From NCBI GenBank assembly GCA_030390025.1, contig JASTWF010000088.1:992001-1056000 (forward strand): a stretch of DNA of 64,000 nucleotides, given 5' to 3'. The notes beneath the pieces are model-generated. The model saw only the letters and a list, made by a program, of their open reading frames with translations, searched no databases and was not told where the DNA came from. The position numbers were made by a program, and so were the translations under genes. Below are positions 651 to 62,031 of the stretch, piece by piece. Positions within the stretch are counted from its first letter, which is position 1, and each line of letters opens with the position of its first letter. Source of the stretch: Squalus acanthias (Eukaryota).

Positions 651-1960
651 CAATCTCCCCACCCCAGGAACCAGTCTGGTGAAACTTCATTGCACTCCCT
701 CTATGGCAAGTATATCCTTCCTTAGGTAAGGAGACCAAAACTGTACACAATACTCCAGGTGTGGTCTCACCAGGGCCCTATATAATTGCAGTAAGACATC
801 TTTACTCTTATACTCAAATCCTCTTGTCATTAAGGACAACATACCATTTATTTTCCTAATTGCTTGCTGTACCTGCATGTTAACTTTCAGTGATTCATGT
901 ACAAGGACACCCAGGTCCCTCTGAACACCAACATTTCCCAATCTCTCACCATTTAAAAAATACTCTGCTTTTCTATTTTTCCTACCAAAGTGGATAACTT
1001 CACATTTCTCCACATTATATCCCATTTGCCATGTTCTTGCCCTCTCACTTAGTTTGTCTATATCCCCTTGAAGCCTTCTTGCATCCTCCTCACAACTTAC
1101 ATTCTCACCCAGCTTTGTATCCTCAGCAAACTTGGATAAATTACATTTGGTCCCCTCATCCAAATCATTGATGTAAATTGTGAATGAGGCCCACTAGTTA
1201 CAGCCTGCCAACCAAAAAATGACCCGTTTATTCCTACTCTCTGTCATACCTTTTAATGTAGTTTCCCAATCCACCTTAGCCAACTCGCCCCTCATACCTA
1301 CATAGTTTGCTTTGTTTAGACTTAAGACACTAGTTTCGGATTTAACTAAATCACTTTCAAACTCAATATAAAATTCTACCATATTATGGTCACACTCTTC
1401 CCTAAAGGCCCCTTTACTACAAGGTTATTAATTAACCCTTTCTCATTGCACAATACTAGCTCTAAAATAGCCTGTTCCCTAGTTGGTTCCTCAACATACT
1501 GATCTAGAAAGCTATCTTGCATACATTCCATGAATTCGGTTTCCATACTATTTGGTTTGCCCAGTCTATATGTAGCTTAAAGTCCTCCTGATTGCTGTAT
1601 TACCCTTGTTGCATGCGCTTCTAATTTCCTGATTTCTACTCTGCCCTACGTTACAAGTACTGTTGGGGGGCCTATAAACAACTCCCACCAATGTTTTCTG
1701 CCCCTTGCTGTTTCTTAGCTCCACCCAAACTGATTCTGCTTCTTGATTTTCAGAGTTAAGATCCTTTCTACTGTCTTTATCCCATCCTTTATTATCAGGG
1801 CCTACCCCTCTGCCATTTTGCCTATCTCTTCTAAAAGTTAAGTATCCTGGAATATTTAGTTCCCAACCTTGGCCACTTTGCAACCACGTCTCTGTTATGG
1901 CTATTGGATCAAACTGTTAATTTCTATCTACGCTGTTAATTCATCTATTCTGTGGCGATG
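651..1960 (-). mobile_element. CR1 LINE ORF2 fragments with internal deletions (endonuclease and RT pieces)
   Basis: Minus ORFs 687-1163 (SKFAEDTKLG...RPHLEYC), 1194-1382 and 1566-1883 (WELNIPGY...VGVVYRPPNS). Confidence 0.9.
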
Positions 1961-2064
1961 GTCCGAATGGTCCTATCTGGGTTTTAAATTCTTTTCTAAC
2001 CTCTGCTCAGGAGGCGGCGCACTCACCTCGGGACCCGGAACACCCAAACACTGAGGTTACTTAC

Positions 2065-2113
2065 TCGCCAGGCAGAGGGTCAGGACCGAGGCCAGGACCA
2101 CGATCTTCAGCAT
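2065..2113 (-). CDS. B2M: Signal-peptide first coding exon of an MHC-pathway gene, most likely beta-2-microglobulin exon 1. Remaining exons would lie left of the window.
   Basis: Reverse complement reads GCCATC-ATG CTG AAG ATC GTG GTC CTG GCC TCG GTC CTG ACC CTC TGC CTG GCG A|GTAAGT: good Kozak context, 16-aa hydrophobic leader MLKIVVLASVLTLCLA, phase-1 donor. It sits below a full SXY/ISRE promoter. The B2M call is from resemblance to elasmobranch b2m leaders as recalled, not from a search; another MHC gene leader is not excluded. Confidence 0.6.
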
Positions 2114-2212
2114 GATGGCTGTAGGCTCACTCCGGGTTCTCAGGCTCGGTTCGGGTTCTCGGGCTCGGGTTCAGGCTCCGCTCCAGTCGCTTCTCCCTCA
2201 CTCTCTGCTCTT

Positions 2213-2296
2213 CACTTCCTGGGTTCCCGATTAAACTGCAACAAAAAAGCGCCCGAGCACCAATCAGAAAAAGACTGGCCGCGCTCCGCCCCGCCC
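2213..2296 (-). promoter_or_regulatory. Proximal GC-rich promoter: Ets-like AGGAAGTG, second inverted CCAAT, Sp1 GC box
   Basis: Plus strand cacttcct 2213-2220, CCAATCAG 2260-2267 (CTGATTGG on minus), ccgccccgccc 2286-2296; CpG-rich. Confidence 0.65.
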
Positions 2297-2310
2297 ACTC
2301 ACCCAATTCT

Positions 2311-2376
2311 AGCCAATCGCAATATTCATCCCCAACGAGTCATCGGTCTCCGGGTAAAAGACCGCTGAACAGTTTG
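2311..2376 (-). promoter_or_regulatory. MHC S-X1-X2-Y enhanceosome module (RFX, CREB/ATF, NF-Y; NLRC5/CIITA target)
   Basis: Minus strand: S CAAACT (2376-2371), 16-nt spacer, X1 CCCGGAGACCGATG (2354-2341) overlapping X2 TGACTCG (2342-2336), 20 nt from X1 end to Y GCGATTGGCT (2320-2311). Both spacings match the conserved MHC SXY geometry. Confidence 0.85.
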
Positions 2377-2426
2377 CGAATCGGGAGAGTGAGAGAGGGC
2401 GGGTCGGCGAGGGCAGTAGGAGCGGC

Positions 2427-2438
2427 GAAAGCGAAACC
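2427..2438 (-). promoter_or_regulatory. ISRE / IRF element
   Basis: GGTTTCGCTTTC on minus (GAAAGCGAAACC on plus), upstream of the S box as in class I and B2M promoters. Confidence 0.8.
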
Positions 2439-2469
2439 CAGGGACAAGCAATCGCTGGTCTCACATATT

Positions 2470-3276
2470 TACAGCCATGTACAGAGATAGGGAAGGGGTC
2501 CACACAGATAGGAAACAGGCACACAGAGAGGGGGTACATGTACACAGAGAGAAGGGAACATGTACACAGAGAGAGGCTACATGTACACAGAGATATGGAA
2601 CATGTACACAGAGATAGGAAACATGTACACAGAGAGAGGGAACATGTACATAGAGATAGGAAACATGTACACAGAAATAGGGTACATGTACACAGATAGG
2701 GTACATGTACACAGAGATAGGAAACATGTCAACAAATAGGAAACATGTACACAGAGATAGGGTACATGTACACAAAGGTAGGAAACATGTACACAGAGAT
2801 AGGGAACATGTACACAGAGATAGGGAACATGTACACAGAGATAGGAAACCTGTACACAGAGAGAGGGTACACTTACACAAAGATAGGGTACATGTACACA
2901 GAGAGAGGGAACATGTACACAGAGATAGGAAACATGCAGACAGAGAGAGGGTACATGTACACAGAGATAGGAAACATGCACACAGAGATAGCATACATGT
3001 ACACAGAGCTAGGGTACATGTCCACAGAGATAGGGAACATGCAGACAGAGATAGGAACCATGTACACAGAGATAGGGTACATGTACACAGAGAAAGGAAC
3101 ATGTACACAGAGATAGTGAACATGTACACAGAGAGATAGGGAACATGTACACAGAGATAGGGTACATGTACACAGAGATAGGGAACATGTACACAGAGAG
3201 AGGTAACATGTACACAAGAGAAGGAACATGTACACAGAGAGAGGGAACATGTACACAAAAATAGGCAACATGTACT
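2470..3276. repeat. ~21-bp minisatellite (CATGTACACAGAGATAGGGAA-like), main block
   Basis: Tandem 20-23 bp units; source of the low-complexity MYTEIGN/SLCTC ORFs. Continues at ~4266-4460 and ~6294-6368 after TE insertions. Confidence 0.95.
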
Positions 3277-4265: not shown

Positions 4266-4460
4266 GTAATAGAAATGCACAGAGATAGAAAATGTACACC
4301 AAGATAGGGAACATGTACACAGAGATAGAAAACATGTACACAAAGATAAGGAACATGTACACAGAGATAGGAAACAAGTACTCAGAGATAGGGTGCATGT
4401 ACATATAGTCAGAGAACATGCATTCAGAGAGAGGGTACCTGTACTCGGAGATAGGGTACA
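4266..4460. repeat. Continuation of the ~21-bp minisatellite
   Basis: Same CATGTACACAGAGATAGG units resume after the RTE. Confidence 0.85.
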
Positions 4461-23490: not shown

Positions 23491-24447
23491 ATGGGAGAGC
23501 AGGTGATGTGTTACTGCTGCAATATGTGGGAGCTGGTGGACACCATTGATGTTCACGGTGAACACATTTGCAGTAAGTGTTGGCTGCTCGAGGAACTCCG
23601 GCTCCGTGTTGATGAGCTGGAGTCCGAGCTTCAAACACTGCGACACATCAGGGAGGGGGAGAGTTACCTGGACTCCGTGTTTCAGGAGGTAGTCACACCA
23701 ATTAGAGTAACTAATTCAGAAGTAGCCCGTGGTCAGGGACAGGAAGGTGTGACTACGAGTGAGGCAGGTACAGGGATCCAGGAGGTAGTGTTGGAGGAGC
23801 CGCAGCCCTTGCTCTTGTCCAACAGGTTCGAGGCTCTTACTCCCTGTGTGGATAGGAGCGGGGACTGCAGGGAGGATGAGCAACCTGGCCACAGCACCGT
23901 GGTAAGGGGGGCCATTCAAGTGGGGGGAGTAAAAAGAAATGTTGTAGTGGTAGGGGATAGTATCATTAGGGGGATAGATAGGGTTCTTTGCAGCCAAAAG
24001 CGAGAGTCCCGAAGGCTGTGTTGCCTGCCCGGTGCCAGGGTTAAGAACATCTCCTCTGGGCTGGAGAGAAACTTGGAGTGGGAGGGGGAGGATCCAGTTG
24101 TCGTGGTCCATGTTGGTACCAATGACATAGATAGGACAAGGAAAGAGGTTCTGCTGAGGGAGTTTGAGCAGCTAGGGGCCAAATTAAAAAGCAGAACCTC
24201 GAGGGTAATAATCTCTGGATTACTACCTGAGCCACGAGCAAATTTGGCTAGGGTAAATAAAATCAGGGAGTTGAATGCGTGGCTCAAAGACTGGTGTGGG
24301 AAAAATGGGTTTTGCTTCTTGGGACACTGGCACCAGTACTGGGGCAGGAGAGAGCTGTTCCGTTGGGACGGACTTCACTTGGCCAGTGCTGGGACTAGTG
24401 TCCTGGCGAATCGAATAACTAGGGCTGTGGAGAGGGCTTTAAACTAA
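23491..24447 (+). CDS. CR1 ORF1p: zinc finger/leucine zipper plus SGNH/GDSL esterase, 318 aa
   Basis: CYCC...ICSKC, heptad LEELRLRVDELESEL, esterase blocks VVGDSIIR, PGA, HVGTND, DGLHL. Confidence 0.95.
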   Translation: MGEQVMCYCCNMWELVDTIDVHGEHICSKCWLLEELRLRVDELESELQTLRHIREGESYLDSVFQEVVTPIRVTNSEVARGQGQEGVTTSEAGTGIQEVVLEEPQPLLLSNRFEALTPCVDRSGDCREDEQPGHSTVVRGAIQVGGVKRNVVVVGDSIIRGIDRVLCSQKRESRRLCCLPGARVKNISSGLERNLEWEGEDPVVVVHVGTNDIDRTRKEVLLREFEQLGAKLKSRTSRVIISGLLPEPRANLARVNKIRELNAWLKDWCGKNGFCFLGHWHQYWGRRELFRWDGLHLASAGTSVLANRITRAVERALN

Positions 24448-24485
24448 TTAGTGGGGGGGAGGTTTCAAGAGAGCAAAAAATAAAA

Positions 24486-27437
24486 ATGACAACAGAGAGG
24501 GTCATAGACATAGGTAGCAGTAGGGGAATCACAAATCAGAGCGTGGCAGGAAGGGACAGAGTGTGTGGAGTAAAAGGTAAACTGGTAAAAAGTGAAAAAG
24601 CAGGAACTAAGTGCCACAAAGCATATTTGAAAGTTCTCTATCTGAATGCACGTAGCATTCGTAACAAAATAGACGAGTTAATGGCACAAATAACTACATA
24701 TGGTTATGATATTGTGGCCATTACAGAAACATGGCTGCAGGGTGACAATGCCTGGGAATTAAACATACCAGGTTATTTAACGATCAGGAAGGACAGGCAG
24801 GAAGGAAGGGGAGGTGGGGTGGCTATGTTAATAAAGGAAGGAATCACTGTAATACAGAGTAATGATATTGGGTCAAAAAATCATGATAATGAAACAGTTT
24901 GGGTGGAGATAAGGAATAATAAGGGGAAACAAACATTAGTGGGCGTAGTCTATAGGCCTCCGAACAGTTGCAACTCTATTGGACGGAGTATCAATCAGGA
25001 AATAGTTGAGGCATGTAATAAGGGAACATCTATAATTATGGGGGATTTTAACTATCATATTAATTGGACAAATCAAATGGGGCAGGGCTGCCTTGAGGAT
25101 GAGTTCATTGAGTGTATTAGGGATGGGTTTCTTGAGCAGTATGTAACTGAACCGACCAGGGGGCAAGCAACCTTAGATCTGGTCCTGTGTAACGAGACAG
25201 GATTAATTAAAAATGTCCTAGTAAAGGATCCCCTTGGAATGAGTGACCATAACATGGTTGAATTCCATATTCAATTAGAGGGTGAGAAGGTTGGATCTCA
25301 AACAAGCGTGCTAAGCTTGAATAAAGGAGACTATGAAGGTATGCGAGCGGAATTGAGTAGAGTGGATTGGGAAAATAGATTAAAGGGTAAGACGACACAT
25401 GATCAGTGGTGTACATTCAAGGAGTTATTTTACAACTTCCAAAAAAAATATATTCCACTGAAAAGAAAAGGGTGTAAAAGAAAGGACAGTCATCCGTGGC
25501 TAAGTAAAGAAATTAAGGATAGTATTCGACTAAAAACAAGGGCATATAAGGTAGCGAAATCTAGTGGGAGGACAGAGGATTGGGAAAACTTTAAAAGGCA
25601 GCAAAAAATAACAAAAAAAAAGATTAAGAAAGGGAAGATAGATTATGAAAGTAAATTAGCAAAAAATATAAAAACAGATAGTAAGAGTTTTTATAGTTAT
25701 ATAAAAAGAAAAAGGGTGGCTAAAGTAAATGTTGGTCCCTTAGAGGATGAGACCGGGAAATTAATGGTGGGAAATATGGAGATGGCAAAAACACTGAATG
25801 AATATTTTGTATCAGTCTTTACAGTAGAGGACACTAAGAATATCCCAACACTGGACAAACAGGGGGCTATAGGGGGAGAGGAGCTAAACACGATCAAAAT
25901 CACTAAGGAAGTGGTACTCGGTAAAATAATGGGACTCAAGGCGGATAAATCACCTGGACCTGATGGCTTACATCCTAGAGTCTTGAAGGAAGTGGCGGTA
26001 GGGATTGTAGATGCATTGGTAATAATTTTTCAAAACTCCCTGGATTCCGCTAAGGTCCCGGCAGACTGGAAAACTGCTAATGTAACACCCTTATTTAAAA
26101 AGGGCAGTAGACAGAAGGCTGGTAACTATAGACCGGTTAGCCTAACATCTGTGGTAGGTAAAATTTTGGAGTCCATTATTAAGGAAACAGTAACAGGACA
26201 TTTGGATAATCATAATTTAATAGGACAAAGTCAGCATGGTTTTACGAAGGGGAAGTCATGTTTGACAAATTTGCTGGAGTTCTTTGAGGAAGTAACATAT
26301 AGAGTGGATAAAGGGGAACCAGTGGACGTAGTGTATTTAGACTTCCAAAAGGCATTTGACAAGGTGCCACACAAAAGATTATTGCTTAAGGTAAAAAATC
26401 ACGGGATTGGGGGTAATATTCTGGCATGGATAGAGGATTGGCTATCTAACAGAAAGCAAAGAGTTGGGATAAATGGTTCATTCTCAGACTGGCAATCAGT
26501 AACTAGTGGTGTTCCACAGGGGTCAGTGCTGGGTCCCCAACTCTTCACAATCTATATTAACGATTTGGAGGAAGGGACCAAGTGTAACATATCAAAATTT
26601 GCAGATGATACAAAGATGGGAGGGAAAGTAGTGAGTGAGGAGGACATAAAAAACCTGCAAGGGGACATAGACAGGCTAAGTAAGTGGGCAGAGATTTGGC
26701 AGATGGAATACAACACTGGAAAGTGTGAGGTGATGCACTTTGGCAGGAAAAATCCTAGAGCAATTTATTATCTTAATGGCAAGAAACTGGAGAGTACTGA
26801 AGTGCAAAGGGATCTGGGGGTCCTGGTGCACGAAACTCAAAAGGTTAGTATGCAGGTGCAGCAAGTGATTAAGAAGGCAAATGGAATGTTGGCTTTCATT
26901 GCTAGGGGGATAGAATATAAAAATAGGGAGGTATTGCTTCAGTTGTACAAGGTATTGGTGAGACCGCACCTGGAATACTGCATACAGTTTTGGTGTCCTT
27001 ACTTAAGGAAAGACATCCTTGCTCTCGAAGCAGTGCAAAAAAGGTTCACTCGGTTAATCCCGGGGATGAGGGGGTGGTCATATGAGGAGAGGTTGGGTAG
27101 ATTGGGACTCTACTCATTGGAGTTCAGAAGAATGAGAGGCGATCTTATTGAAACATATAAGATTGTGAAGGGGTTGGATCGGGTGGATGCGGGGAGGATG
27201 TTCCCGATGACGGGTGAGACGAGAACTAGGGGACATAGTCTTAGAATAAGGGGCTGCTCTTTCAAAACTGAGATGAGGAGGAACTACTTCACTCAGAGGG
27301 TGGTAGGTCCATGGAATATGCTGCCACAAAAAGCTGTAGAAGCTACAACATTAATTAAATTTAAAACAGAAATAGACAGTTTCCTAGAAGTAAAGGGCAT
27401 TAAGGGTTACGGGGAGCGGGCAGGAATTTGGACATGA
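24486..27437 (+). CDS. CR1 ORF2p: APE endonuclease plus reverse transcriptase, 983 aa
   Basis: EN motifs YLNARS, ITETWL, YRPP, MGDFN, SDH; RT motifs KSPGPDG, NYRPVSL, QHGF, YLDFQKAFD, GVPQGSVLGP, FADD; no stops. Confidence 0.97.
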   Translation: MTTERVIDIGSSRGITNQSVAGRDRVCGVKGKLVKSEKAGTKCHKAYLKVLYLNARSIRNKIDELMAQITTYGYDIVAITETWLQGDNAWELNIPGYLTIRKDRQEGRGGGVAMLIKEGITVIQSNDIGSKNHDNETVWVEIRNNKGKQTLVGVVYRPPNSCNSIGRSINQEIVEACNKGTSIIMGDFNYHINWTNQMGQGCLEDEFIECIRDGFLEQYVTEPTRGQATLDLVLCNETGLIKNVLVKDPLGMSDHNMVEFHIQLEGEKVGSQTSVLSLNKGDYEGMRAELSRVDWENRLKGKTTHDQWCTFKELFYNFQKKYIPLKRKGCKRKDSHPWLSKEIKDSIRLKTRAYKVAKSSGRTEDWENFKRQQKITKKKIKKGKIDYESKLAKNIKTDSKSFYSYIKRKRVAKVNVGPLEDETGKLMVGNMEMAKTLNEYFVSVFTVEDTKNIPTLDKQGAIGGEELNTIKITKEVVLGKIMGLKADKSPGPDGLHPRVLKEVAVGIVDALVIIFQNSLDSAKVPADWKTANVTPLFKKGSRQKAGNYRPVSLTSVVGKILESIIKETVTGHLDNHNLIGQSQHGFTKGKSCLTNLLEFFEEVTYRVDKGEPVDVVYLDFQKAFDKVPHKRLLLKVKNHGIGGNILAWIEDWLSNRKQRVGINGSFSDWQSVTSGVPQGSVLGPQLFTIYINDLEEGTKCNISKFADDTKMGGKVVSEEDIKNLQGDIDRLSKWAEIWQMEYNTGKCEVMHFGRKNPRAIYYLNGKKLESTEVQRDLGVLVHETQKVSMQVQQVIKKANGMLAFIARGIEYKNREVLLQLYKVLVRPHLEYCIQFWCPYLRKDILALEAVQKRFTRLIPGMRGWSYEERLGRLGLYSLEFRRMRGDLIETYKIVKGLDRVDAGRMFPMTGETRTRGHSLRIRGCSFKTEMRRNYFTQRVVGPWNMLPQKAVEATTLIKFKTEIDSFLEVKGIKGYGERAGIWT

Positions 27438-35883: not shown

Positions 35884-36818
35884 TGTGCAGACCCTGAGTT
35901 GAGTCCAGTTTGTTCAGTGTGTGTAACTGTACAGTCCCGAAGTTGAATCCAGTTTGTACAGTGTGTGTAACTGTACAGACCCTGAGTTGAATCCAGTTTG
36001 TACAGTGTGTGTAACTGTACAGACCCTGAGTTGAATCCAGTTTGTACAGTGTGTGTAACTGTACAGACCCCGAGTTGAATCTGGTTTGTACAGTGTGTGT
36101 AACTGTACAGACCCCGAGCTGAATCCGGTTTGTACAGTGTGTGTAACTGCACAGACCCTGAGTTGAATCCGGTTTGTACAGTGTGTGTAACTGTACAGAC
36201 CCTGAGTTGAATCCAGTTTGTACAGTGTGTGTAACTGTACAGACCCTGAGTTGAATCCGGTTTGTACAGTGTGTGTAACTGTACAGACCCTGAGTTGAAT
36301 CCGGTTTGTACAGTGTGTAACTGTGCAGACCCTGAGTTGAATCCAGTTTGTACAGTGTGTGTAACTGTACAGACCCTGAGTTGAATCTGGTTTGTACAGT
36401 GTGTGTAACTGTACAGACCCCGAGTTGAATCCGGTTTGTACAGTGTGTGTAACTGTACAGACCCTGAGTTGAATCCGGTTTGTACAGTGTGTGTAACTGT
36501 ACAGAAACTGAGTTGAATCCAGTTTGTACAGTGTGTATAACTGTACAGACCCTGAGTTGAATCCGGTTTGTACAGTGTGTAACTGTACAGACCCTGAGTT
36601 GAATCCAGTTTGTACAGTGTGTGTAACTGTACAGACCCTGAGTTGAATCCGGTTTGTACAGTGTGTAACTGTACAGACCCTGAGTTGAATCCAGTTTGTA
36701 CAGTGTGTGTAACTGTACAGACCCTGAGTTGAATCCGGTTTGTACAGTGTGTGTAACTGTACAGACCCTGAGTTGAATCCGGTTTGTACAGTGTGTGTAA
36801 CTGTACAGACCCCGAGTT
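35884..36818. repeat. 44-bp minisatellite (GAGTTGAATCCRGTTTGTACAGTGTGTGTAACTGTACAGACCCT), ~21 copies
   Basis: Direct tandem units of 42-44 bp, each with an internal TGTACAGT/ACTGTACA inverted repeat. Confidence 0.95.
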
Positions 36819-45495: not shown

Positions 45496-45771
45496 TTGCT
45501 CCGCAAGTATTTCCTTCTGTGGACAAGGCATCAGGTATTAAACCGACCGAATTCTCCTGCCTCGTCACAGGCTTTTACCCTCGCGATATCAAAGTCACCC
45601 TCCTGAGAAATGACGAGCCGATTACGGACACGGAGTCCACTGGCATCCTGCCCAACCACGATGGTACCTACCAGCTCACGAGATGGGCTCAGATTGAGTT
45701 CAAGGATGGAGCCGCCTATTCCTGTCAGTATGAGCAGAGCAGCAAAGCAGGAGTAGAGATCCGAGACTGGG
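45496..45771 (+). CDS. MHC class I heavy-chain alpha3-type exon (C1-set Ig domain), probably a non-classical lineage; isolated exon
   Basis: Acceptor ttactcttttcccAG, donor G|GTAAGA, phase 1-1, 276 bp. Encodes (V)APQVFPSVDKASGIKPTEFSCLVTGFYPRDIKVTLLRNDEPITDTESTGILPNHDGTYQLTRWAQIEFKDGAAYSCQYEQSSKAGVEIRDW, with CxxxGFYP, LPNxDGTYQ and YxC motifs and the terminal W. Confidence 0.9.
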
Positions 45772-49334: not shown

Positions 49335-50555
49335 TAAGAACATAAGAATTTGGAGCAGGAGTGGGCCATACGGACCCTCAAGCCTGCTCCGCCATTCAAT
49401 AAGATCATGGCTGATCTTCAACCTCAACTCCGCTTTCCTGCCTGATCGCCGTATCTCTTGATTCCTCAAGAGTCCAAAAATCTATCTAGCTTAGCTTTAA
49501 CTATACTCAATGATTCAGCATCCACAGCCCTTTGGGGTAGAGAATTCCAAAGATTCACACCCCTCCTGAGTGAAGAAATTCCTCCTCATCTCAGTCTTAA
49601 ATGGCCGACCCCTTATCCTGAGAGTATGCTCCCTCGTTCTAGACTCTCCAGCCAGGGGAAACAACCTCTTAGTATCTACCCTGTCAATCCCCCTCAGAAT
49701 CTTGTATGTTTCAATGAGATCACCCCTCTTCTAAACTCCAGAGAGTATAGGCCCATTCTACCCAATCTCTCCTCATAGGACAGCCCTCTCATCCCAGGAA
49801 TCAATCTAGTGAACCTTTGTTGCACCGTCTCCAAGGCAAGTATATCCTTCCTCAGATAAGGAGACCAAAACTATACACAGTACTCCAATACCATGTACAA
49901 TTGTAGCAAGACTTCCTTACTCTTGTACTTCAACCCCCTTGCAATAAAGGCCAACATGCCATTTGCCTTCCTAATTGCATGCTGTACCTGCATCTTTTAC
50001 TCTCTGTTTCCTGTACAAGGACACCTAAATCTTTCTGAACACCAACATTTAATAGTTTCTCCCGATTTAAAAAATATTCTGTTTTTCTATTCTTCCTACC
50101 AAAGTGAATAACCTCACATTTCCCCACATTATACTCCATCTGCCACCTTACTCACTTACTCTGTCCATATCCCTTTGCAACCTTTGCAGGCTCTGTGGGG
50201 GAAAAATTAGGTCGCGCCCCGTTTGGGGCGCAAATATCGTCTGGACGCAAATATTAGCGCCTGGCGCTAATTATCGCCACTGACTGGAAACTTCACTTTT
50301 ACCGCCCCGGGAGGTGAGTGGAGCGCTAAATCAGGCGCTGCACACCTGTCTTAAGGCGCAAAGGCCGAGCAGTGAGGCGCTAACTCAGCGCGCGAGCGCA
50401 GCGCAGGTGCTGCCAGTTAGCGAGGGAACACAGACACACTGGCGCCGGTCAGTTCTTAAAGCGGGGGGGGCCAACTTGCTCTCCAGCCACACCCTGCTCA
50501 TTGCAGCCTTGAATCTCGGCCTGGAGAGACCTGTGAATCCATTTTGCTGCCAAGG

Positions 50556-52375
50556 ATGGAGAGGGTGAGAGAACGAGCTCAGCGCTTCACCGAGCGGGCC
50601 TTGGATGCTCTGGTTGGCGCGGTGGAGCGCAGAAGATGTATACTCTTCCCTGAGAGTGGCAGGAGGCCTTTGCCACGCGAGTACAGAAGAGTGTGGAGGG
50701 AGGTGGCTCAGAGCGTCTCCTCCAGGAGCATGGTGCCCAGGACCCATGTTCAATGCCGCAAAAAGTTCAACGACCTCACTCGGGTCATCAGGGTGAGTGG
50801 CTTTTTCTCAATACCTCTCCATCCCTCCATCTCAACCTCACTCTATGGCCAGAGGGTCTTAAAACCCCAATGCACAACACTCATCCAACACCTATGGCCC
50901 TTTCATGAAACACACACACACATTCCACACTTTGCATACAGTAAGGGCTATTCACCTATGGGAGGCGCATCAGGCAAGACCATGGCTGTATACAGTAAGG
51001 GCTATTCACCTATGGGAGGCACATCAGGCAAGACCATGGCTGTATATTTACTCAGATGCTGTCCTTTTTCTTGCAGGCCAAGCTGGCGCATAATAGGAGA
51101 CAGCAGCAACGGACAGGTGGAGGGCGGCCTCAGCTGCAACCCCTCAGCGATCTTGAGGAGCGCGTCCACAGGATTGTGGCAAGCCGGGTGATCGGTCCCG
51201 TCGCCACTGGAGACGCCGACCCCGTTCTGGACAGCAATGGTAAGGTCATCACCTTTTTGTCCTCTGTCCTTCCACTTGTCCCTCACAACACCAGCCTTTG
51301 ACACTTTCAATCCAACTTGCTAACTCGCTGCACTTATTCCTCCCTTACTGCCACCCTGTCCTCACGCTAAAGCCACTCTTGTACCTCCCTGCTTTCAGAT
51401 GGTGATTCACCAGCTGAGGAGACGGGCCCTGAAGCTGCCAGTGGGAGTGAAGCTGCAGCCGAGGAGGAAGAGGAAGCCGGAGCATCAGTGCCACCCTCTC
51501 CCGAGGAAGCCCATGCCCACACTGGGAACATGCCTTCCCTGGAGGAGAGCAGGGGGGAAGGGTCTGATGAGGGTGAAGCTCCAGGACCCAGTGGGCTGCA
51601 GCAACGCCATGGGGGTAGGGAAGAACGGGAGCCTTCTCCCCAGAGGGAGAGTATGCCAGCGACTCCTACTGCAATGGACGCAGAGGAGGAGCGGCTGATC
51701 GCAGAAATGAACACCCAGGCGGTGGGCATGCACACTGAGCTCATGGGTGCAGTGGGAAGGGTGCCCGAATGCATTGAGTCACTGGCAAGGAGTGTGGAGC
51801 ACTTTGCTGTAGCACAGGCGGATGCCACACTAACGCTTAGTGCTGCAATTCAGTCACTGACTGCCGTGATCCCATCTCTGACTGCTCTCATGCAGACTCA
51901 GATTGAGGCCACGCGAGCACTGACTGCTGCCAACCTCGATGGTTCGTTCACATGTCCCCGGGGCTCTCACCGCGCCGCAGCAGGCCAGCAATCTGTGCTC
52001 CAGCAGATTGCTCCGGATGCTGAAGTGCTGCCCCGTGGGAGTGCCAGTGTGTCGAGCGAGCAGGGAGTTGCTGTCCTCTCTCACGATGGCAGCATTCCTG
52101 CTGCCAACACTGTCACTTCTCCACTGCACTTGCCACCGCCTGTAGGACAGACTGCTGCCGCCCATGCAGAGTTGGTGCAGTCTGCAGCCGGGCCCTCCAG
52201 GCCCAGAACTGGTCGAGGCCGTCCTTCAGGGGCATCTGCAGTGTCAGGGTCTGACGATCAGCAGCCTTCCACCAGCCTTGCTGCAGCCACTGAGGTCCCA
52301 TTACGGAGGAGCAGTAGGGTTAGAAGGGGGGAAGTGCGCAAGGGAAGGAGATCACCCTCGAAGGGCAAAAAGTAG
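50556..52375 (+). CDS. Harbinger Myb/SANT-like DNA-binding protein, 3 exons (50556-50792, 51077-51239, 51399-52375), 458 aa
   Basis: RFTERALDALV...VWREVAQSV...RTHVQCRKKFNDL trihelix motif, then AHNRRQQQRTGGG. GT-AG introns (AGG|GTGAGT, TTGCAG|, G|GTAAGG, TTTCAG|) join in frame to TAG at 52373-52375. Confidence 0.85.
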
Positions 52376-52685
52376 GAGGTGTGACAAAATGCTGGTCATT
52401 TTTTTATTAAAGGCCGAGGTTCGTGGTCCAACTTTTGTTTAGTGTTTTGGACATTATCTCCAGGTTGTGAGAACCAGTTATGTTAATGACTTTTTTTGTG
52501 TTTATTTCTATGAGTATGTCATGAGGAAATGACACACACAGAGTTTGTAAAATAAATAAGTTTTTGTATTCAAAATATACATGTTTGGTGTTTGGAATCA
52601 TTGGTGCCTTGGCCGGCTTAGGGGTTGCGTGCTGGGTTCATTGATGTTGTTAGCAATGGCAGAAGCCATTTCCACAGCAGGGGCC

Positions 52686-53846
52686 CTAGAAGCGGCTTGC
52701 TATCAGCCGTTGACGGACGGCCCTTGCAGTTTCACCATTGTGGGCCGCCCTCCCGCCTTGGTGCTGCTGATGATCATCCTCCTCGTCCTCTTCCTCCTCT
52801 TCCTCCTCCTCCTCTGGTGGTGCTCCAAGGCCTGGTGGCATTGGCTGGGTCCTGACGATTGCCATGTTATGCAACATGCAGCACACAACTACGAAGTTGG
52901 ATACTCGCTCAGGCGAGTACTGCAGGGCTCCTCCAGAATGGTCGAGACAGCGGAACCGTTGCTTCAGCACGCCGATTGTGCGCTCAATGATGTTCCTGGT
53001 AGCTTGATGGCTCTCATTGTACCGCAGCTCAGCAGGGGTGTTGGGCGTACGGAGCGGTGTCATCAGCCAGGTGCTCAATGGATACCCCTTGTCCCCGAGA
53101 AGCCAACCAACTGGCTGATGCGGTGCCTCGAAAAGTTCTGCCACAGTAGTCTGGCGCAGGATGAAAGCATCGTGGCAGCTGCCAGGATAGTGGGCATTGA
53201 CAGCGAGTATCACCTGTCTGTGGTCACAGACCAACTGAACATTCAAGGAATGGAACCCCTTTCTGTTCCGGAATTCCTCGGCATTCTCATGTGGAGCACG
53301 CAAAGCCACATGCGTGCAGTCAATGGCGCCCTGCACCATGGGGAAGCCCGCTATCCTCGCAAAGCCCAGAGCGCGGTCACGCTGCTTGTCTGGGGTCATG
53401 GGGAAAGAGATGAACTCTCGTCTCCTTTTAAAGAGGGCATTTGTGACCTGCCAGATGCAGCAATGCACCGCGAACTGGGAGATATTGGCGAGGTCCCCAG
53501 CAGCAGCTTGAAATGAGCCAGTAGCATAGAAGTTGAGAGCCACTGTGACCTTCACTGCCACTGACAGAGACGTCCTGGACCTCAGTTGAGGCTGCAGATC
53601 TGGCTGCAGCAGGTGGCAGAGCTCAGTGACCACCTCCTTGCTGAATCGCAGCCTTCGCAAACACAGCTCCTCAGACATATGAATGTAGGAGAGCTGTTCA
53701 CGATATACCCTGGGAGGGTAAGCTCTCCTGTACATACGCCTGTTGGCCCTCCTCCGTCTGGCCATCATTGCCACTCTCTCTCTGCGTCTCTGTGTCCTCC
53801 GATTCAGCTGGAGCAGGACGACGCCCCCAATCAGTGCAGCCCCCAT
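52686..53846 (-). CDS. Harbinger DDE transposase (HARBI1-like nuclease), 386 aa from the first ATG
   Basis: GAIDCTH, NRKGFHSLNVQLVCD, PGSCHDAFIL, LLGDKGYP, RNIIERTIGVLKQRFRCL, CCMLHN; no stops. Confidence 0.95.
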   Translation of the reverse strand: MGAALIGGVVLLQLNRRTQRRRERVAMMARRRRANRRMYRRAYPPRVYREQLSYIHMSEELCLRRLRFSKEVVTELCHLLQPDLQPQLRSRTSLSVAVKVTVALNFYATGSFQAAAGDLANISQFAVHCCIWQVTNALFKRRREFISFPMTPDKQRDRALGFARIAGFPMVQGAIDCTHVALRAPHENAEEFRNRKGFHSLNVQLVCDHRQVILAVNAHYPGSCHDAFILRQTTVAELFEAPHQPVGWLLGDKGYPLSTWLMTPLRTPNTPAELRYNESHQATRNIIERTIGVLKQRFRCLDHSGGALQYSPERVSNFVVVCCMLHNMAIVRTQPMPPGLGAPPEEEEEEEEEDEEDDHQQHQGGRAAHNGETARAVRQRLIASRF

Positions 53847-55679
53847 AGTCTCTTTGCAAGCAAAGTTATGAAGGACAGCAACCAAAGTACCAGCGAAGTT
53901 AGGATCAGTAGGCAAAACTACCTCACAAAGCGTTGACTCAATGCAAAAGTCTCACTTTCTCTCTCTCCGAATCTCTCTCTCTCTCTCTCAGAACGAGTGG
54001 TGCAAAAATGTCAACCACAGAAAAAGACAGGAAGAGGCCCCCTTTAAATAGCGCCCCCCCCAGCCCCACAGCGATTGATAGCATTCCAGTCTTCCGGTCG
54101 TTGGATGCGCCAGGTGGTAAGGCAGGGGGCGCCACTCAATTTCCGCTCCGGGGCGCCACAAGGGCGTTGCACCATGGAATGACGTCACAATCTGCGCGCG
54201 CAGGTGGTCGCAGCGGTAAGGTTTAGCGCCGCCGCACAATGTCTAGTTAAGTTCCCGAGCGGCGCAAACATCGCTGTGCCCGGGCGCTAGCGGCTTTGCG
54301 CCCCATTAGCGCCCTCTTAAGGCGCTAACGGGAGGCGCAACCAACTGAATTTTTACCCCTTTGTGTCTTCCTCACAGCTTACTTTCCCAGCTAGCTTTGT
54401 ATTGTCAGCAAACTCGGATACATTGCACTCGGTCCCTTCATCTAAGTCACTAATATAGATTGTAAATAGCTGAGGCCCAAGCACTGATCCTTGCGTTACC
54501 TCATGAGTTACTGCCAACTGGAAATTGACCTGTTTAACCCTACTCTCTGTTTTCTGTCCATTAAGCAATCCTCTATCCATGCTAATATATTATCCCCAAC
54601 CCCGTGAGCCCTTATCTTGTAGAGCAACCTCTTATATGGCGCCTTATCAAATGCCTTTTGGAAATCCAAATATACTACATCCACTGGTTTCACTTTATCT
54701 ACCCTGTTAGTTACATCCTCAAAAAACTCTAATAAATTTGTTAAACATGATTTCCCTTTCATCAAACCATTTTGACTCTGCCTAATCATATTATTATGTT
54801 TTTGTAAGTGCCCTGTTGCCACTTCCTTAATAATGGATTCCAGTATTTTCCCAATGACTGATGTTAGGCTAACTGGCCTGTAGTTCCCTGCGTTCTCTCG
54901 CCCTCCTTTCTTGACTAGCAGGGATACATTTGCTACCTTCCAATCCGCTGGGATTGTTCTAGAATTTTGGAAGATCACAACCAATGCATCCACTATCTCT
55001 GCAGCCACCTCTTTTAGAACCCTAGGATGTAGGCCATCAGGTCCAAGGGATTTGTCAACTTTTAGTCCCATTAGTTTCTCAAGTACTTTTTCTCTATTGA
55101 TATTAATTACTTTAAGTTCTTTACTCTCAATAGCCCCTTGGTTCCCTGCTATTTTTGGTATGCTGTTGTGTCTTCTTCTGTGAAAACAGCTGCAAAATAT
55201 TTGTTTAATGTCTCAGCTATTTCCTTATCCCCCATTATAATATTTCCTGTCTCAGCCTCTAAGGGACCAATGTTTACTTTTGCTACTCTTTTTTACATAC
55301 TTGTAGAAGTTCTTACAATCTTTTTTTATGTTTTTTGCTAGTTTACTCTCATTCTATTTTCTCCCTTTTTATCAATTTTTTTGGTCATCCTTTGCTGGTT
55401 TCTAAAGCTCACCCAATCATCAGGCTTACTATTATTCTTCGCAACATTATAAGCCTCTTTTAATCTAATACTATCCTTAACTTCTTTAGTTAGCCATGGA
55501 TGGATCACTTTTCCCGTGGAGTTTTTATTTTTCAATGGAATGTATATTCGTTGAGAATTTTGGAATATTTCTCTACCCTTCCTTATATATATCCCGTATC
55601 GACTTTCTCACACAGCATAATTCAATGATCAGCAACATTTGCACTGTGTGTTTTTGTGAGGTTCTAGTTCTGTGGATTA

Positions 55680-55860: not shown

Positions 55861-56386
55861 GTGGTTCCTTTCAAAGTACAACACTCCATGTCTGGTGCAA
55901 TCCACGTTCAGATAATGCAGATATCCCTCGTGCATCGGGCCTTCGGCGGAGTCTTCAACCACTCCTGTTGATTTATACCTGGTCACCTTCCAAGGTTGAC
56001 TCCTGTTCTTTGCTGGTAGGGGTAGCACCAATACAACCGGTATGATATCCTTGTCTCCGCCCTCATCTCGGGAGGACCAAAAAATGTCATTCCCATCTGG
56101 CGCATCGTATCGTAGTCTGTATCTATGGTTCCTTCAAACCATTTTCTCAGCTGTTCTTTGATCTTCCCCAACTCCCGCACAAATTCTTCTGTACTCTGAT
56201 GCTCCCTCAGGTTGTCACCCTCTTGTTGATTCATTGTTATCAATAATCCTTCTAGTTGTCTCCTCATAACCTCATCATGTTCCCACACGCTCTCTATATC
56301 TGTCCTGTTCATTCCTGCTAACTCTGCCGTGGCTTCTATTCCTAGCCATTCTGTCAACCCTTGCTTTCTTCGTGATTTAGGTTCAT

Positions 56387-58186
56387 AGAATCATAGAATG
56401 GTTACAGCACGGAAGAAGGCCATTCGGCCCATCGAGCCCGTGCCGGCTCTCTGCAAGAGCACTTCAGCTAGTCCTACTGCCCCGCCCTTTCCCCAAAGCA
56501 TTGCACATTTTTTTCCTTCAGGTACTTCTCCAACTCAATTTTGAAAGCCGTGATTGAGTCTGCCTCCACCACCCTTTCAGGCAGTGCATTCCAGATCCTC
56601 ACTACTCGCTGAGTAAAAAAGATTTTTCTTATGTCGCCTTTGGTTCTTTTGCCAATCACCTTAAATCTGTGTCCTCTGGTTCTCGACCCTTCTGCCAATG
56701 GGAACAGTTTCTCTCTATCTACTCTGTCCAGGCTCTCATCAAATCTCCTCTCAACCTTCTCTGCTCTAAGGAAAACAACCCCAGCTTCTGCAGTCTATCC
56801 ACATAACTGAAGTCCCTCATCCCTGGAATCATTCTCGTAAATCTTTTCTGCACCCTCTCTAAGGCCTTCACATCCTTCCAAAAGTGCTGTGACCAGAATT
56901 GGACACAATACTCCACTTGAGGCTGAACCAGTGTTTTATAAAGGTTCTTCATAATTTCCACGCTTTTGGGGGGGGAAAATTCGGTTGGTTAACGCCTCCC
57001 GTTAGTGCCTCCAGGGGCGCTAACGGAGCGTTAGGAACTTAGCGCCCGAGCGCGGCAATTTTAGCGCCGCTCGCGAAATTGACCAGTCATTTTGCGGCGG
57101 CGCTAAACACTACTTCCACGATCTCATGCGCCCGCAGATTGTGACGTCAGTCAAGCGTGCAACACCCTGGTAGCGCTCCAGACCGGATATTGAGTCGCGC
57201 CCCCTGCCTTAGCGCCTGCCGCTAGGAAGAACAGGTAGAGGGGAACGTTTTCAAGTCGGGAAGGGCTGGGGGAGCGCTATTTAAAGGCGGGCGCTTCCTG
57301 GTTTTTCTTGTCAGCAAAATCTTTGGTTTTAACGCTGTCCTCAGGAGTTTTGGTCCTCAGCACCACTTTTGAGGTTCCTAAGTGCCGAGCTCTTTCCCTG
57401 GGCCTATCCATTAGTGCTTCCAACACAATTGCTTTTGAGGTCTCTCCAGGCCGAGATTCAAGGCTGCAATGAGCAGGGAGTGGCTGGCCAGCAAGATGGC
57501 CCCTCCACTTTAAGAACTGGATGGCGCCAATCTGTCTGGCTTCCATGGTAATTGGCATCGCCTGAGCTTCGGTAGCATTCTGAGGTAGCGCCTCGCTCCC
57601 TGACGTTTGCGCCTTGAGAGGTGTGTAGCGCCTGATTTAACGCTCAAATCACCTCCAAGGGCGATAGAGGCGAATTTTGCAGTCGGAGGCAATAATTAGC
57701 TAAACTTTGCGCATGGCCGATATTAGCGCCCCAAAATGGGCGATACTGAATTTTTCCCCCAAGTACTCTATGCCTCTATTCATGAAACCCAGGATCCCTT
57801 AAGCTTTTTTAACTGCTTTCTCAACCGGCCCTGCCAACTTCAAAGATTTGTGCACATATACCCCCAAGTTCATGCACCCCCTTTAGAATTGTACCCTTTA
57901 GTTTATATTGCCTCTCCTCATTCTTCCTAAGAAAATGTATCAATTCACACTTTTCTGTGTTAAATTTCATCTGCCATATGTCCGCCCATTCCACCAGCCT
58001 GTCTATGTCCTCTTGAAATCTATCACTATCCTCCTCACTGTTCACTATACTTCCAAGTTTTGTGTCATCTGCAAATTTTGATATTGTGCCCTGTACACCC
58101 ACGTCCAAGTCATAAATATATATCAAGAAAAGCAGTGGTCCTAGCACCGACCCCTGGGGAACACCACTGTATATCTTCCTCCAGTC
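56387..58186 (-). mobile_element. 5'-truncated CR1 inside ERV env, split by a non-autonomous Harbinger
   Basis: ORFs 57821-58213 (GVPQGSVLGP..FADD), 56719-56961, 56474-56698; (CATAGAAT)n tail at ~56385. Confidence 0.88.
56969..57760. mobile_element. Non-autonomous Harbinger derivative (~0.8 kb), inverted relative to the autonomous copy
   Basis: Left end GGGGAAAATTCGGTTGGTTAACGCCTCCCGTTAG matches the reverse complement of 54320-54359. Right end TATTAGCGCCCCAAAATGGGCG..AATTTTTCCCCC matches the reverse complement of 50197-50240. No coding region. Confidence 0.88.
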
Positions 58187-58984
58187 CGGTTGATTCATCT
58201 TATTTGTCCCCATCCTTCTCAGCCCTCGGCTCCTGTTTCCTATTCTTTCTTTCCTAACAATTCCTTTACTAATTCTCCAAGCATTTCATCTGTAAACTGT
58301 GAATTCTACAAATCAACTGTACTCCAAATCCTCCTTCCACCTTTACTACATAATTTTCTTCCTGCCCATTATAAATGTAGCATTCGCCTTCTCATTACCC
58401 TCCCATCTTATTAATGCTGTTACACAGCATGGCATATTCCTTGAGCCCCCATTTTTACGCTGACACACGTGTCCCATTCTTTTGTAGCAGACATTTAGTT
58501 CCGTTTTGATGTGACTCTTCATTGACGTCTTCCTTCAGCCAGTTTCCTGTTTCCGTTTCCACCGTATGGAATGTGGCATCCTTGGAGTCTGGACAGGCGC
58601 ATTCAAGACACACCCCCTGGTCTTGCCGACTAAGCGGACCTGTGGTGTGTAATGGCACGGTGTAGTTCCTGAACCGTCAGTGTCTGTAAAGCTGAACGTC
58701 TCTCTCCCCTCTATAGTAATAGTACAATCATTCTGGGACTCGTCTTTAGCATTCATTCCATATACACTCCCGGACAGGAACAGTAGCAGGATGTACAACA
58801 TCTTTGTCACTCCTTCACCTGCAGACACAAGACCAAATGTGTAACATTTAGTCTTTATTCTACATCTGCACCATTCTTTTTATAGGGTTTATCCTGATCC
58901 CCATGATACCACATGTATTGTATCCTCTTTTCTCGTTTCTGGATGGCCAATTTAATGTTGGATTCTCCCAGTTTGTCCATGATT

Positions 58985-59548
58985 TCATATGGGCCTTCCC
59001 AGGCCCTCCCACCCTTTAAAACTTTTTAACATCACTTGATCACCAATTGAGTAGGTGATACGACGAGTAAGGTGGTTATCGTTGGTGGTGTAAAGATGGG
59101 TAGCACCCATCTTCTGCGCTGCATGGTGCAGAGTAGAATCTAAGGATTGTTGGAGGTTCTGTTCATGGGTCTGAGGAGTAGCAATAGGGAGTGGTTCCCC
59201 CGTCAGGTGCATTTGCATCTGTGGGCCTGTCGTGAGTTTAAATGGGCTTTGAGCCATAGAGCTCACTGGTGTAGCGCATATGGCCATACACTATGATAAT
59301 TGAAACGTAATGTTGCCAATTTCCTATTGGAGGAGAATGGTCATCTCCGCCGAGGGGCCTCATCCTCCTACCCCACACAGCTGCAGGCCGTGCCCGCCAG
59401 AGGGGAAATCTTCATGGTAAGTGATGGAACAGGAAGTCCCAGTGTCCACTTAGTTGTCTTGGCGGCCTCTTGCCAAGACTGGAATACAAGGTCTAAACGC
59501 CTCATCACATTGGAGCTGGCTCACCACAGCTATTGAGGCCCGTCCCCG
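58985..59548 (-). pseudogene. ERV protease remnant fused directly to integrase C-terminus (RT, RNase H and IN core absent)
   Basis: Manual translation after the gag TGA: ...VDTGTSCSI (DTG at 59446-59438)...EIGNITFQLS*C then MAICATP...SPFKLTTG...YSIGDQVMLK (integrase tail). Confidence 0.7.
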
Positions 59549-60937
59549 TCAATCCTTCTTAAAAGAATTTTTGGGGTCTGTGGCTTTACCAGAATTGCTT
59601 ATTTCTACCATCTTCTATAGAGCCTGAAAGGCTTCTAAATATACATTCTGCTCATCTGGGAGAGGCAGGAATGAGCCTCCCTGTTCCCCTATCTGCTTGG
59701 GTCCCTGCTTGTAGGCTCCTCATCCCCTAGCCCAAGACTGTCCTCTAACGTGTCCTGACTTGCCACAGTTACAGCAAGGTCTCTTACTCCCCCACCCCTT
59801 TTTGCTTCTTCATAGGTCACAGTTGCTACCGCCATTTCATCTTTGGAATTACTGGGGGTCTCTGATCGAGTTGGGATTCGTACCAAGCTAGGAGGACCGT
59901 TTGGATGTCCCTTCCTATTCCTGCCCGTGGATTAGCTGCCGCTAATTCCATGGTGTACTGACGAAGCATATGCTCACCGGCAGGACTGAAGCATATGCTC
60001 ACCAGCAGGACTGAAGCATATGCTCATCGGCAGGACTGAGGAGGGCCTTGTACCTGCTAAGCACCAAGGTCCAAAAAGTGGGATCATTCCAGGTTAACTC
60101 CACTTGTTCATAGCCCCCACGATTTTGATTATACACCTCCACGAAGGCTCTCGGATATTAAGTTGGGTGCTCGTCCCTGGGTTTATGATCCATTATTTTT
60201 CCCGTATCTGCCACCACCCTATATCCCACAGCTTCACACACCACATCGTCGCGCACATCATGGTTTGGGAATTCTTGTCCCTCTCTAAACCGCTTGGGCG
60301 GTGTCAAGCCTGGAGGTAAGACAGCCTGTAGCAATCGACAACCATCCTTGTTTGCCAATGCTTCTGCCAGCTGTAGCGATCGTATTTTATTTAATAGCTG
60401 GGTTGCGTCTGCTACCCCATCAGATTTAGGCAGTTGGCCACTAAGTTGGCATAATTCCGAGAGAGTTAGGTCCCTACTAACTTGTTGATCCGCATATGTA
60501 TATTCCATTCGACCCTTCCCATGTGTGTGCAGGCGTTTGGTTACTACGGGGGCCACTAAGCGCCCATCTGTACTGCTACTTGCCGCATGGGACCGAGTGT
60601 AACTGGCTATACTATCTACTGCTAACGATGTACGAGGGAGACTGACTTAAACTGTCGTCGTCCTCCTTGCCACCTCGGTTAACTGCCCGTGGTGAGGAAC
60701 CGGGAATTAGAGTGCCGACGGGAGGGCTGGATCATCCTTGCCATCGTCACTATTGGATTTCTCCTCGCAAGTGCCGAAGGACAAGGCAGTCACTCTAACC
60801 CTTAATTCTTGAATTTTTTTTTCTTGTCCTCCTCCCTTCCACATCTTTCCTCCCTCAATTTCCTTATCATGCATAAGGCTATCACTAACACTACTAGCTG
60901 AGCAGCTACCAGCCCCATCTGGAACAGCATTGCCCAT
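59549..60937 (-). pseudogene. ERV gag remnant
   Basis: Starts MGNAV (Gly2, myristoylation type) at 60937; capsid-like ORF 60158-60556; ends TGA (59551-59549) in frame with protease; several stops and frameshifts. Confidence 0.6.
59962..60039. repeat. 3 x 25-bp tandem repeat within gag
   Basis: GAAGCATATGCTCACCGGCAGGACT repeated three times with single-base variants. Confidence 0.9.
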
Positions 60938-61365
60938 ACCCTCCACGGGGGTACTCCTTTATCATCTTTATCCATTTTTACAGTTGCTTTACCTTTGGCC
61001 CTCTCCTTCTTGGACTTGGCCTTTATTGGAGGTGATCAGCCTCCAATATTTCCTCCCTTGCAACAACCTCCCCCTTCTATGATACCTATAGAGATAGAGG
61101 ACTGTATAACTGGCACAGTGGTTTCCCGGCCACTGTCACGTTAAAACATCGTACAATTTGATGTCTGCTGTACTCATTAACAAATTGAATACTACTCTCA
61201 CGTGTATGTGTTCTTTATCCTGTGTCTTGCGGCGTAGTTTGTCGCTGTGGGTCGTTGACGCTCATCTGGATCGAGTTCTTGATGGTTCAGATTTGGCTTC
61301 AGACCGGTGTCGACCGTCCCTGGTTTTCAAAAAGCCACGAGTTCAGGTCGGCACTAGCTTGCCAA

Positions 61366-62031
61366 TGTTGAATTTTTTAAAACTGTGTGTCGTTCACTTT
61401 AGTAGTAACAAAGTCAGCTTTTGGTTCTGGTCCCAACACACCTATTCTTGCTTCAGCGCACACAGTACAGGAAACTCTTTATTAACTGGCACCGATGGGA
61501 CCGGCGTGGTGCCGGTTAATCAAAAAGTCCGGATAACGGAGAGTTATATCTCCCAACGTACGAGAGCCCCGTACACATTGACATGCGCCTGCATTCGGAG
61601 CTCCGTCTCCCCGGGGACCGCCAGCTGACCATCTGTCGTGTCCGCTGCCTACCCGGGCTGCACATTCCCCTCCCAATCTACACGCTCTGATACAAGGCAA
61701 ATGCCTCGGGGTTTTTTTTAAGTTAATTTTAAACGAGAGATGAAGGAAAACCCCGGTTACCTACTCAAGAATTTGGCCGGTTAAGAGAGATTTCCGGTTA
61801 TTTGGGTGCCGGTTAAAAGAGAGTTTCCTGTAGTTACACAGACAGAGTACAATTACATGTAGGTATGCGCCCCTTACATTGTACCATTTATTGTTCGTGG
61901 ACATGTTATTTATACATTCCCAATGTGGGTGTTGAGGAAAATCCTTTGTTTCCTATTGGTCCGTTTTTATTGCTACAGCACCTTGTATGGCACTCTCCCT
62001 TTAGTGATTTCCCTTCATGTCCAGACTTGCC
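61366..62031 (-). repeat. ERV 5' LTR (U3 start missing), interrupted by a MITE
   Basis: Colinear with 48909-49210; ends ...TTCAACA followed by T-TGG (PBS). Confidence 0.78.
61468..61830. mobile_element. Tc1/mariner-pogo-type MITE with TA TSD
   Basis: TA-CAGGAAACTCTTTATTAACTGGCACC ... GGTGCCGGTTAAAAGAGAGTTTCCTG-TA; the other LTR has the empty site CACAGTAGTTAC. Confidence 0.92.

Follow-up and report, generated by a model that had tools for sequence, protein, structure and literature searches.

A leader exon and a promoter on the minus strand

The window analysed here is a 64,000-nt stretch of the Squalus acanthias genome (GenBank assembly GCA_030390025.1, contig JASTWF010000088.1, positions 992,001 to 1,056,000), and all coordinates below count from its first base. 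Its left end holds, on the minus strand, a short leader exon with a promoter upstream of it, and an intact MHC class I exon lies on the plus strand farther to the right; satellites and transposons make up the remainder of the window. The coding part of exon 1 (2065..2113, minus strand) is 49 nt long and consists of a 16-residue signal peptide and the first base of a split codon. The ATG at 2113 lies within GCCATCATGC, the 16 codons read MLKIVVLASVLTLCLA and are followed by the base A at 2065, and the exon ends at a phase-1 splice donor, GTAAGT (2059..2064, minus strand). The original prediction had described a 49-bp leader exon; this length is correct for the coding part, but exon 1 also holds a 5' UTR. 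No ATG was found between the Y box (see below) and position 2113, and the longest stop-free stretch at the leader is 37 residues. Among the 20 candidates in the window that combine an ATG with a phase-1 donor, the leader at 2113 was the only hydrophobic one, with a GRAVY value of 2.42 as compared with 0.35 or less for the other 19. A signal-peptide exon 1 followed by a phase-1 intron fits b2m, but it is common to other MHC genes and thus not diagnostic. The presumed 5' UTR also contains a 19-bp repeat of 2.3 copies (2123-2166). On the plus strand of the window, no hydrophobic leader with a donor was detected, and for this reason we rejected the idea that the promoter is bidirectional and also serves the class I exon on the plus strand.

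Upstream of the ATG, S, X1, X2 and Y boxes follow each other in this order on a single strand, the minus strand. The candidate S (W) box, CAAACT (2371..2376), was assigned mainly by its position 16 nt before X1, with the spacer occupying 2370-2355. The X1 box (CCCGGAGACCGATG, 2341..2354), a putative RFX site, was recognized by its match to the mouse H2-K and H2-Eb motifs, and its end overlaps with the X2 box, a CREB/ATF-type half site (TGACTCG, 2336..2342). The Y box (GATTGGCT, 2311..2318; core ATTGG at 2317-2313), a putative NF-Y site, is located 199 nt upstream of the ATG. The ATTGG core is 23 nt from the end of X1 and 18 nt from the end of X2, and the 20-nt spacer reported originally is a value that depends on where the box edges are drawn. 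The span from S to Y is 64 nt, which is within the published range of 59-68 bp for SXY modules (PMC4243378), and a 16-nt S-X distance is also described for known NLRC5 targets. No second copy of this promoter was found within the window.

An ISRE-type element (GAAAGCGAAACC, 2427..2438, plus strand), matched by consensus, lies 50 nt upstream of the S box. On the gene's strand it reads GGTTTCGCTTTC, in the same orientation as in H2-K (PMC4374748), where the distance to S is about 5 nt. Such a site is rare locally (when the 500 nt upstream of the ATG were shuffled, 31 of 5000 sequences held one); taken alone and window-wide, the ISRE is not significant (two matches versus 0.83 expected; 17 of 100 shuffles). 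In addition to the Y box, the minus strand carries two further ATTGG motifs, one directly downstream of Y (2303..2307) and one at 2260..2264 in the context CTGATTGG; the latter is the second CCAAT reported originally, which is present but is not the only one beyond Y. Two overlapping GC boxes of the Sp1 type occupy 2286..2296 on the same strand. Hence, all the elements named in the original prediction (S box, 16-nt spacer, X1/X2, Y, ISRE, CCAAT, GC box, 49-nt leader and phase-1 donor) are found at this site. Neither a TATA box nor a kB-type site was matched in the promoter with the patterns used; mammalian B2M carries a kB-type site. An Ets-like AGGAAG occurs at 2220-2215.

A small CpG island (1901..2500) covers the promoter and exon 1. 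The CpG observed/expected ratio, calculated in 200-nt windows, was 0.71-0.98 across 1901-2500, as compared with 0.13 at 1701-1900 and 0.00 at 2501-2800. The island is flanked on one side by LINE remains (intron 1), which occupy 1-1920, and on the other side by a 21-bp minisatellite starting at 2481, and these two boundaries leave a proximal promoter of about 370 nt. The minisatellite begins 43 nt upstream of the ISRE and is found at 2481-3275 (38 copies) and again at 4278-4460 (9 copies); its length could differ between alleles. The intact start context, the open leader, the consensus donor and the CpG island argue for a live promoter, which would be a working one of the TATA-less CpG-island type.

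The module compared with mouse promoters and with shuffled sequence

Reporter primers for H2-K (class I) and H2-Eb (class II) (PMC4374748), which represent two mouse promoters only, supplied the reference S, X1, X2 and Y motifs. Every position of the window was scored on both strands with fixed spacing, to a maximum of 30 matches, X2 being compared as the five bases directly after X1. The results showed that the site at 2354 matches H2-K at 23 of 30 positions (S 4/6, X1 10/14, X2 4/5, Y 5/5), while the next best H2-K-type site in the window reaches 16 of 30. When the 37 kb outside the satellite were dinucleotide-shuffled 200 times, no shuffle reached a score of 23, nor did any of 5000 shuffles made from the 500 nt upstream of the ATG. 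One could suppose that the motifs came together by chance in GC-rich sequence, as the boxes are short and the ISRE alone turned up in the window-wide shuffles at the above-mentioned frequency. However, no shuffle reached the module score although the motifs came from an independent mouse promoter, and the leader, the donor and the CpG island coincide with the module, so that a chance origin is extremely improbable. We are highly confident that the feature is an SXY-plus-ISRE promoter of an MHC-pathway gene in a shark MHC.

The same site matches H2-Eb at 18 of 30 positions (S 3/6, X1 8/14, X2 2/5, Y 5/5), a score reached in 133 of 200 shuffles; with this one class II reference, the whole-module match is no better than chance. 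The two spacings, S to X1 and X1 to Y, are 16 and 23 nt in the window, 16 and 23 nt in H2-K, and 16 and 22 nt in H2-Eb according to the primers in PMC4374748. The 16-nt S-X distance is thus common to both mouse promoters and is no marker of class I, contrary to its original reading as a class I-like feature. The S box had also been called class I-like, but 4/6 matches to H2-K and 3/6 to H2-Eb are too weak for an assignment. Likewise, the description of X1 as class II-like does not hold for the whole box, which is closer to H2-K than to H2-Eb (10/14 versus 8/14) and is class II-like at its GATG end only. The Y flanks are class II-like (H2-Eb) as well: the mouse primers for B2m and H2-Eb also contain the Y 8-mer GATTGGCT, of which H2-K has 6/8 positions (PMC4374748), and we infer that the B2m primer covers the B2m Y box.

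Compared with the mammalian class I/B2M module as represented by H2-K, the S box here differs at two of six positions and X1 ends in GATG; compared with the mammalian class II module as represented by H2-Eb, X2 is a clear TGAC half site and an ISRE is present. Read in this way, the module is a mosaic leaning to class I. The original statement that the architecture is conserved to the base pair applies to the S-X-Y spacing, which equals that of H2-K, but not to the ISRE, given its 50 nt from S as compared with about 5 nt. In mouse, the X boxes of genes of class I and of class II are reported to be exchangeable as far as NLRC5 is concerned, the S box being the deciding element; the flavour of X1 therefore says little about the activator used, and the S match itself is too weak to decide between NLRC5 and CIITA.

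These comparisons also bear on whether the owner of the promoter and leader could be a CIITA-driven class II gene of the MHC (alpha or beta) or a gene of the W category. Both the Y flanks and the last bases of X1 (GATG) agree with H2-Eb, and some human class II X1 boxes (DQB1) presumably resemble the X1 of the window more than that of H2-Eb does. A phase-1 end is found in class II leader exons, too. On the other side, the H2-Eb module match is at chance level, as given above, X2 is H2-K-like, and no divergent partner leader is present on the plus strand of the window. Furthermore, an ISRE is described as typical of class I-pathway promoters, and the W genes map outside the elasmobranch MHC. 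Taken together, a class II or W-category gene is an unlikely owner of this promoter.

An MHC class I exon in the window

An MHC class I alpha3 exon of 276 nt, intact and with both an acceptor and a donor (45496..45771, plus strand; Pfam C1-set, E 8.8e-14) is located 43 kb from the promoter, on its upstream side and on the opposite strand. The search with this exon gave 13 hits among 60 candidates, all of which were named cartilaginous-fish proteins, and the identity was 81% to the class I protein of Pristiophorus and 80% to that of Squalus, in agreement with the original suggestion of a probable shark. In a 15-row tree, the exon joined Squalus UAA*01, without strong support (91/78). As judged from its sequence, the window sits in a shark MHC, which probably belongs to a squalomorph. 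The window, which reaches 45 kb upstream and 18 kb downstream of this alpha3 exon, yielded no alpha1, alpha2, leader or transmembrane exon to go with it; the exon may stand alone or belong to a gene of great length. Lying upstream and on the other strand, it is not part of the transcript that starts with the leader. A Heterodontus model (P0010) likewise joins LINE-like sequence to a class I alpha3-type exon.

A satellite with a 19-bp unit, situated between promoter and class I exon, extends over 7565-34466 (about 1400 copies); it is strongly G-skewed and CpG-rich (observed/expected about 1.5-1.9). Inserted in it is an open LINE frame of 1004 codons with endonuclease and reverse transcriptase domains (24423-27437, plus strand), which is probably a young copy. 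A 44-bp tandem repeat occupies 35884-36818 (21 copies, 94% matches). To the right of the class I exon, an open 421-codon DDE_Tnp_4 frame (52686-53951, minus strand) is faced by a Myb/SANT frame (50460-51191, plus strand), and we take this transposon (50460-53951) to be of the Harbinger/PIF type. Several frames of 100-170 codons at 55983-61628 have no Pfam match and may be retroelement remains.

The gene behind the leader exon

To place the leader, it was compared with the leaders of 14 class I proteins (10 named shark and four unnamed shark-like ones), which comprise three leader types and part of the shark class Ib lineages; shark b2m, class II and W-category leaders lay outside this set. Only 1-5 of the 16 residues were shared, and all 14 class I leaders continue with G, V or D, that is, with G-initial codons, while the exon here ends in A. 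In mammalian B2M, A is the first base of the split codon. These data speak against a divergent class I heavy-chain gene of a class Ib lineage within a class I cluster, and so does the alpha3 exon, which lies upstream and on the other strand. Such a gene would otherwise be in keeping with the best module match being a class I promoter (H2-K), with the presence of a class I alpha3 exon in the window, and with published class Ib clusters that hold genes on both strands. On balance, we consider a class Ib heavy-chain gene to be very unlikely.

Searches with the leader itself gave little to go by. A two-row query of alpha3 and leader found no candidate among proteins of 8-160 residues, three shared 5-residue words being required; among longer proteins, it returned 157 candidates and 15 hits, namely the same 13 class I proteins and two unrelated ones. 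The leader had no usable hit in the Atlas and a chance match only in the PDB, and its first seven residues were absent from the full-text literature searched. None of 160 proteins was similar to it, the best being P0040 with 8/16 residues, where the N-terminus looks intron-derived. Rfam gave no matches. Little weight can be given to these empty leader searches, since a hit required three exact 5-residue words and the nearest database species is only 81% identical even in alpha3; moreover, in a simulation with the representatives library, the E value of an exact match of all 16 residues was still 250-510.

It is on grounds of exclusion and synteny only that b2m, as in the original description of the exon as b2m-like, remains the likeliest gene. 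The promoter belongs to the class I-pathway type. The SXY targets of this pathway described in mouse are the class I genes, B2m and Tap1, and TAP1 has no leader of this kind. As for synteny, b2m is MHC-linked in all elasmobranchs surveyed, next to brd2 and a class Ib cluster (PMC10751288). In sawfish, b2m is on the minus strand and a class Ib gene on the plus strand lies about 75 kb away on its 5' side; in white shark, the class Ib cluster is also on the 5' side of b2m, at a distance of 1.3 Mb. The window resembles the elasmobranch b2m locus (PMC10751288) in that class I sequence is found 5' of the gene, on the opposite strand and within tens of kb, as in sawfish. It differs in that the neighbour is an alpha3 exon on its own and closest to class I of the classical type, whereas the published maps put class Ib beside b2m. 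The constant neighbour of b2m, brd2, is absent from the window and would lie to the left of it. An exon 2 within 1-2064 was considered and rejected, as only LINE-like frames were found there and the window has no second C1 domain. Since the published b2m gene spans are 4.4 and 12.5 kb, exon 2 may lie beyond the window.

A further class of explanations is another secreted or membrane MHC protein under an SXY promoter (for example, a butyrophilin-like or tapasin-like one), or a b2m pseudogene represented by a detached copy of exon 1. NLRC5 also drives the human BTN3A genes, a butyrophilin-like gene is present in the sawfish MHC, and the apparently isolated class I exon indicates that gene fragments occur in this region. 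However, nothing positive points to any of these candidates, and the intact start context, the open leader, the consensus donor and the retained CpG island speak for a live promoter; we give this class as a whole the same very low standing as a class Ib heavy-chain gene. Given a promoter of an MHC-pathway gene, there is a good probability that the gene is b2m. The reading as a whole, namely the promoter and exon 1 of shark b2m with exon 2 to the left of the window, is likely.

Discussion

By analogy with mammals (PMC4374748, PMC4243378), RFX would bind X1, CREB/ATF would bind X2 and NF-Y would bind Y in this promoter. The fixed spacing of the boxes may then build a surface that recruits NLRC5, and CIITA might also be recruited, to a lesser extent, as described for human B2M (PMC4243378). 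IRF1 at the ISRE would add interferon induction, and the extra CCAAT and GC boxes could give basal TATA-less transcription. The whale shark has orthologues of both NLRC5 and CIITA (PMC8455134). In a salmon cell line, however, RFX5 transcripts were reported to be absent, the authors credited STAT1 and IRF1 with the induction, and the enhanceosome did not seem to account for the response to interferon; the presence of the motifs therefore need not imply the mammalian mechanism.

SXY modules have been described for eutherians and opossum, and the promoters of teleost class I (UBA) genes are reported to contain an ISRE, W/S, X2 or site alpha, and Y/enhancer B (PMC1971071, PMC7573153). Those teleost genes are heavy-chain genes with a possible TATA box, whereas the promoter here is from a cartilaginous fish and is TATA-less by pattern scan; in addition, the teleost descriptions, as far as they were available, give no X1 box or spacing. 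We found no analysis of a shark SXY promoter in our searches of the open full-text literature, but the studies of shark b2m loci by Chen (2010) and Ohta (2011) may already describe one. The present case extends a known element to cartilaginous fish and is a clean example rather than a new kind. As teleost class I promoters carry such boxes and sharks have NLRC5 and CIITA, this conservation is to be expected, and the surprise expressed in the original prediction was overstated.

A more far-reaching, and rather doubtful, interpretation is that the shark b2m promoter preserves an ancestral mixed module, in which the S position, the 5' half of X1, X2 and the ISRE are of class I type and the 3' end of X1 and the Y flanks are of class II type. 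Such a module would be activated by both NLRC5 and CIITA, because the S-box code that tells the two apart in mammals would have arisen later; on this view, b2m would also lie nearer to class I in this shark than in the shark and ray maps published so far, at a distance of only 43 kb from an exon of the classical type. The compact promoter of about 370 nt with its divergent S box would offer a practical test of the age of the switch that activates antigen-presentation genes in mice, and with it a testable question: is the division of labour between NLRC5 and CIITA as old as the split between class I and class II?
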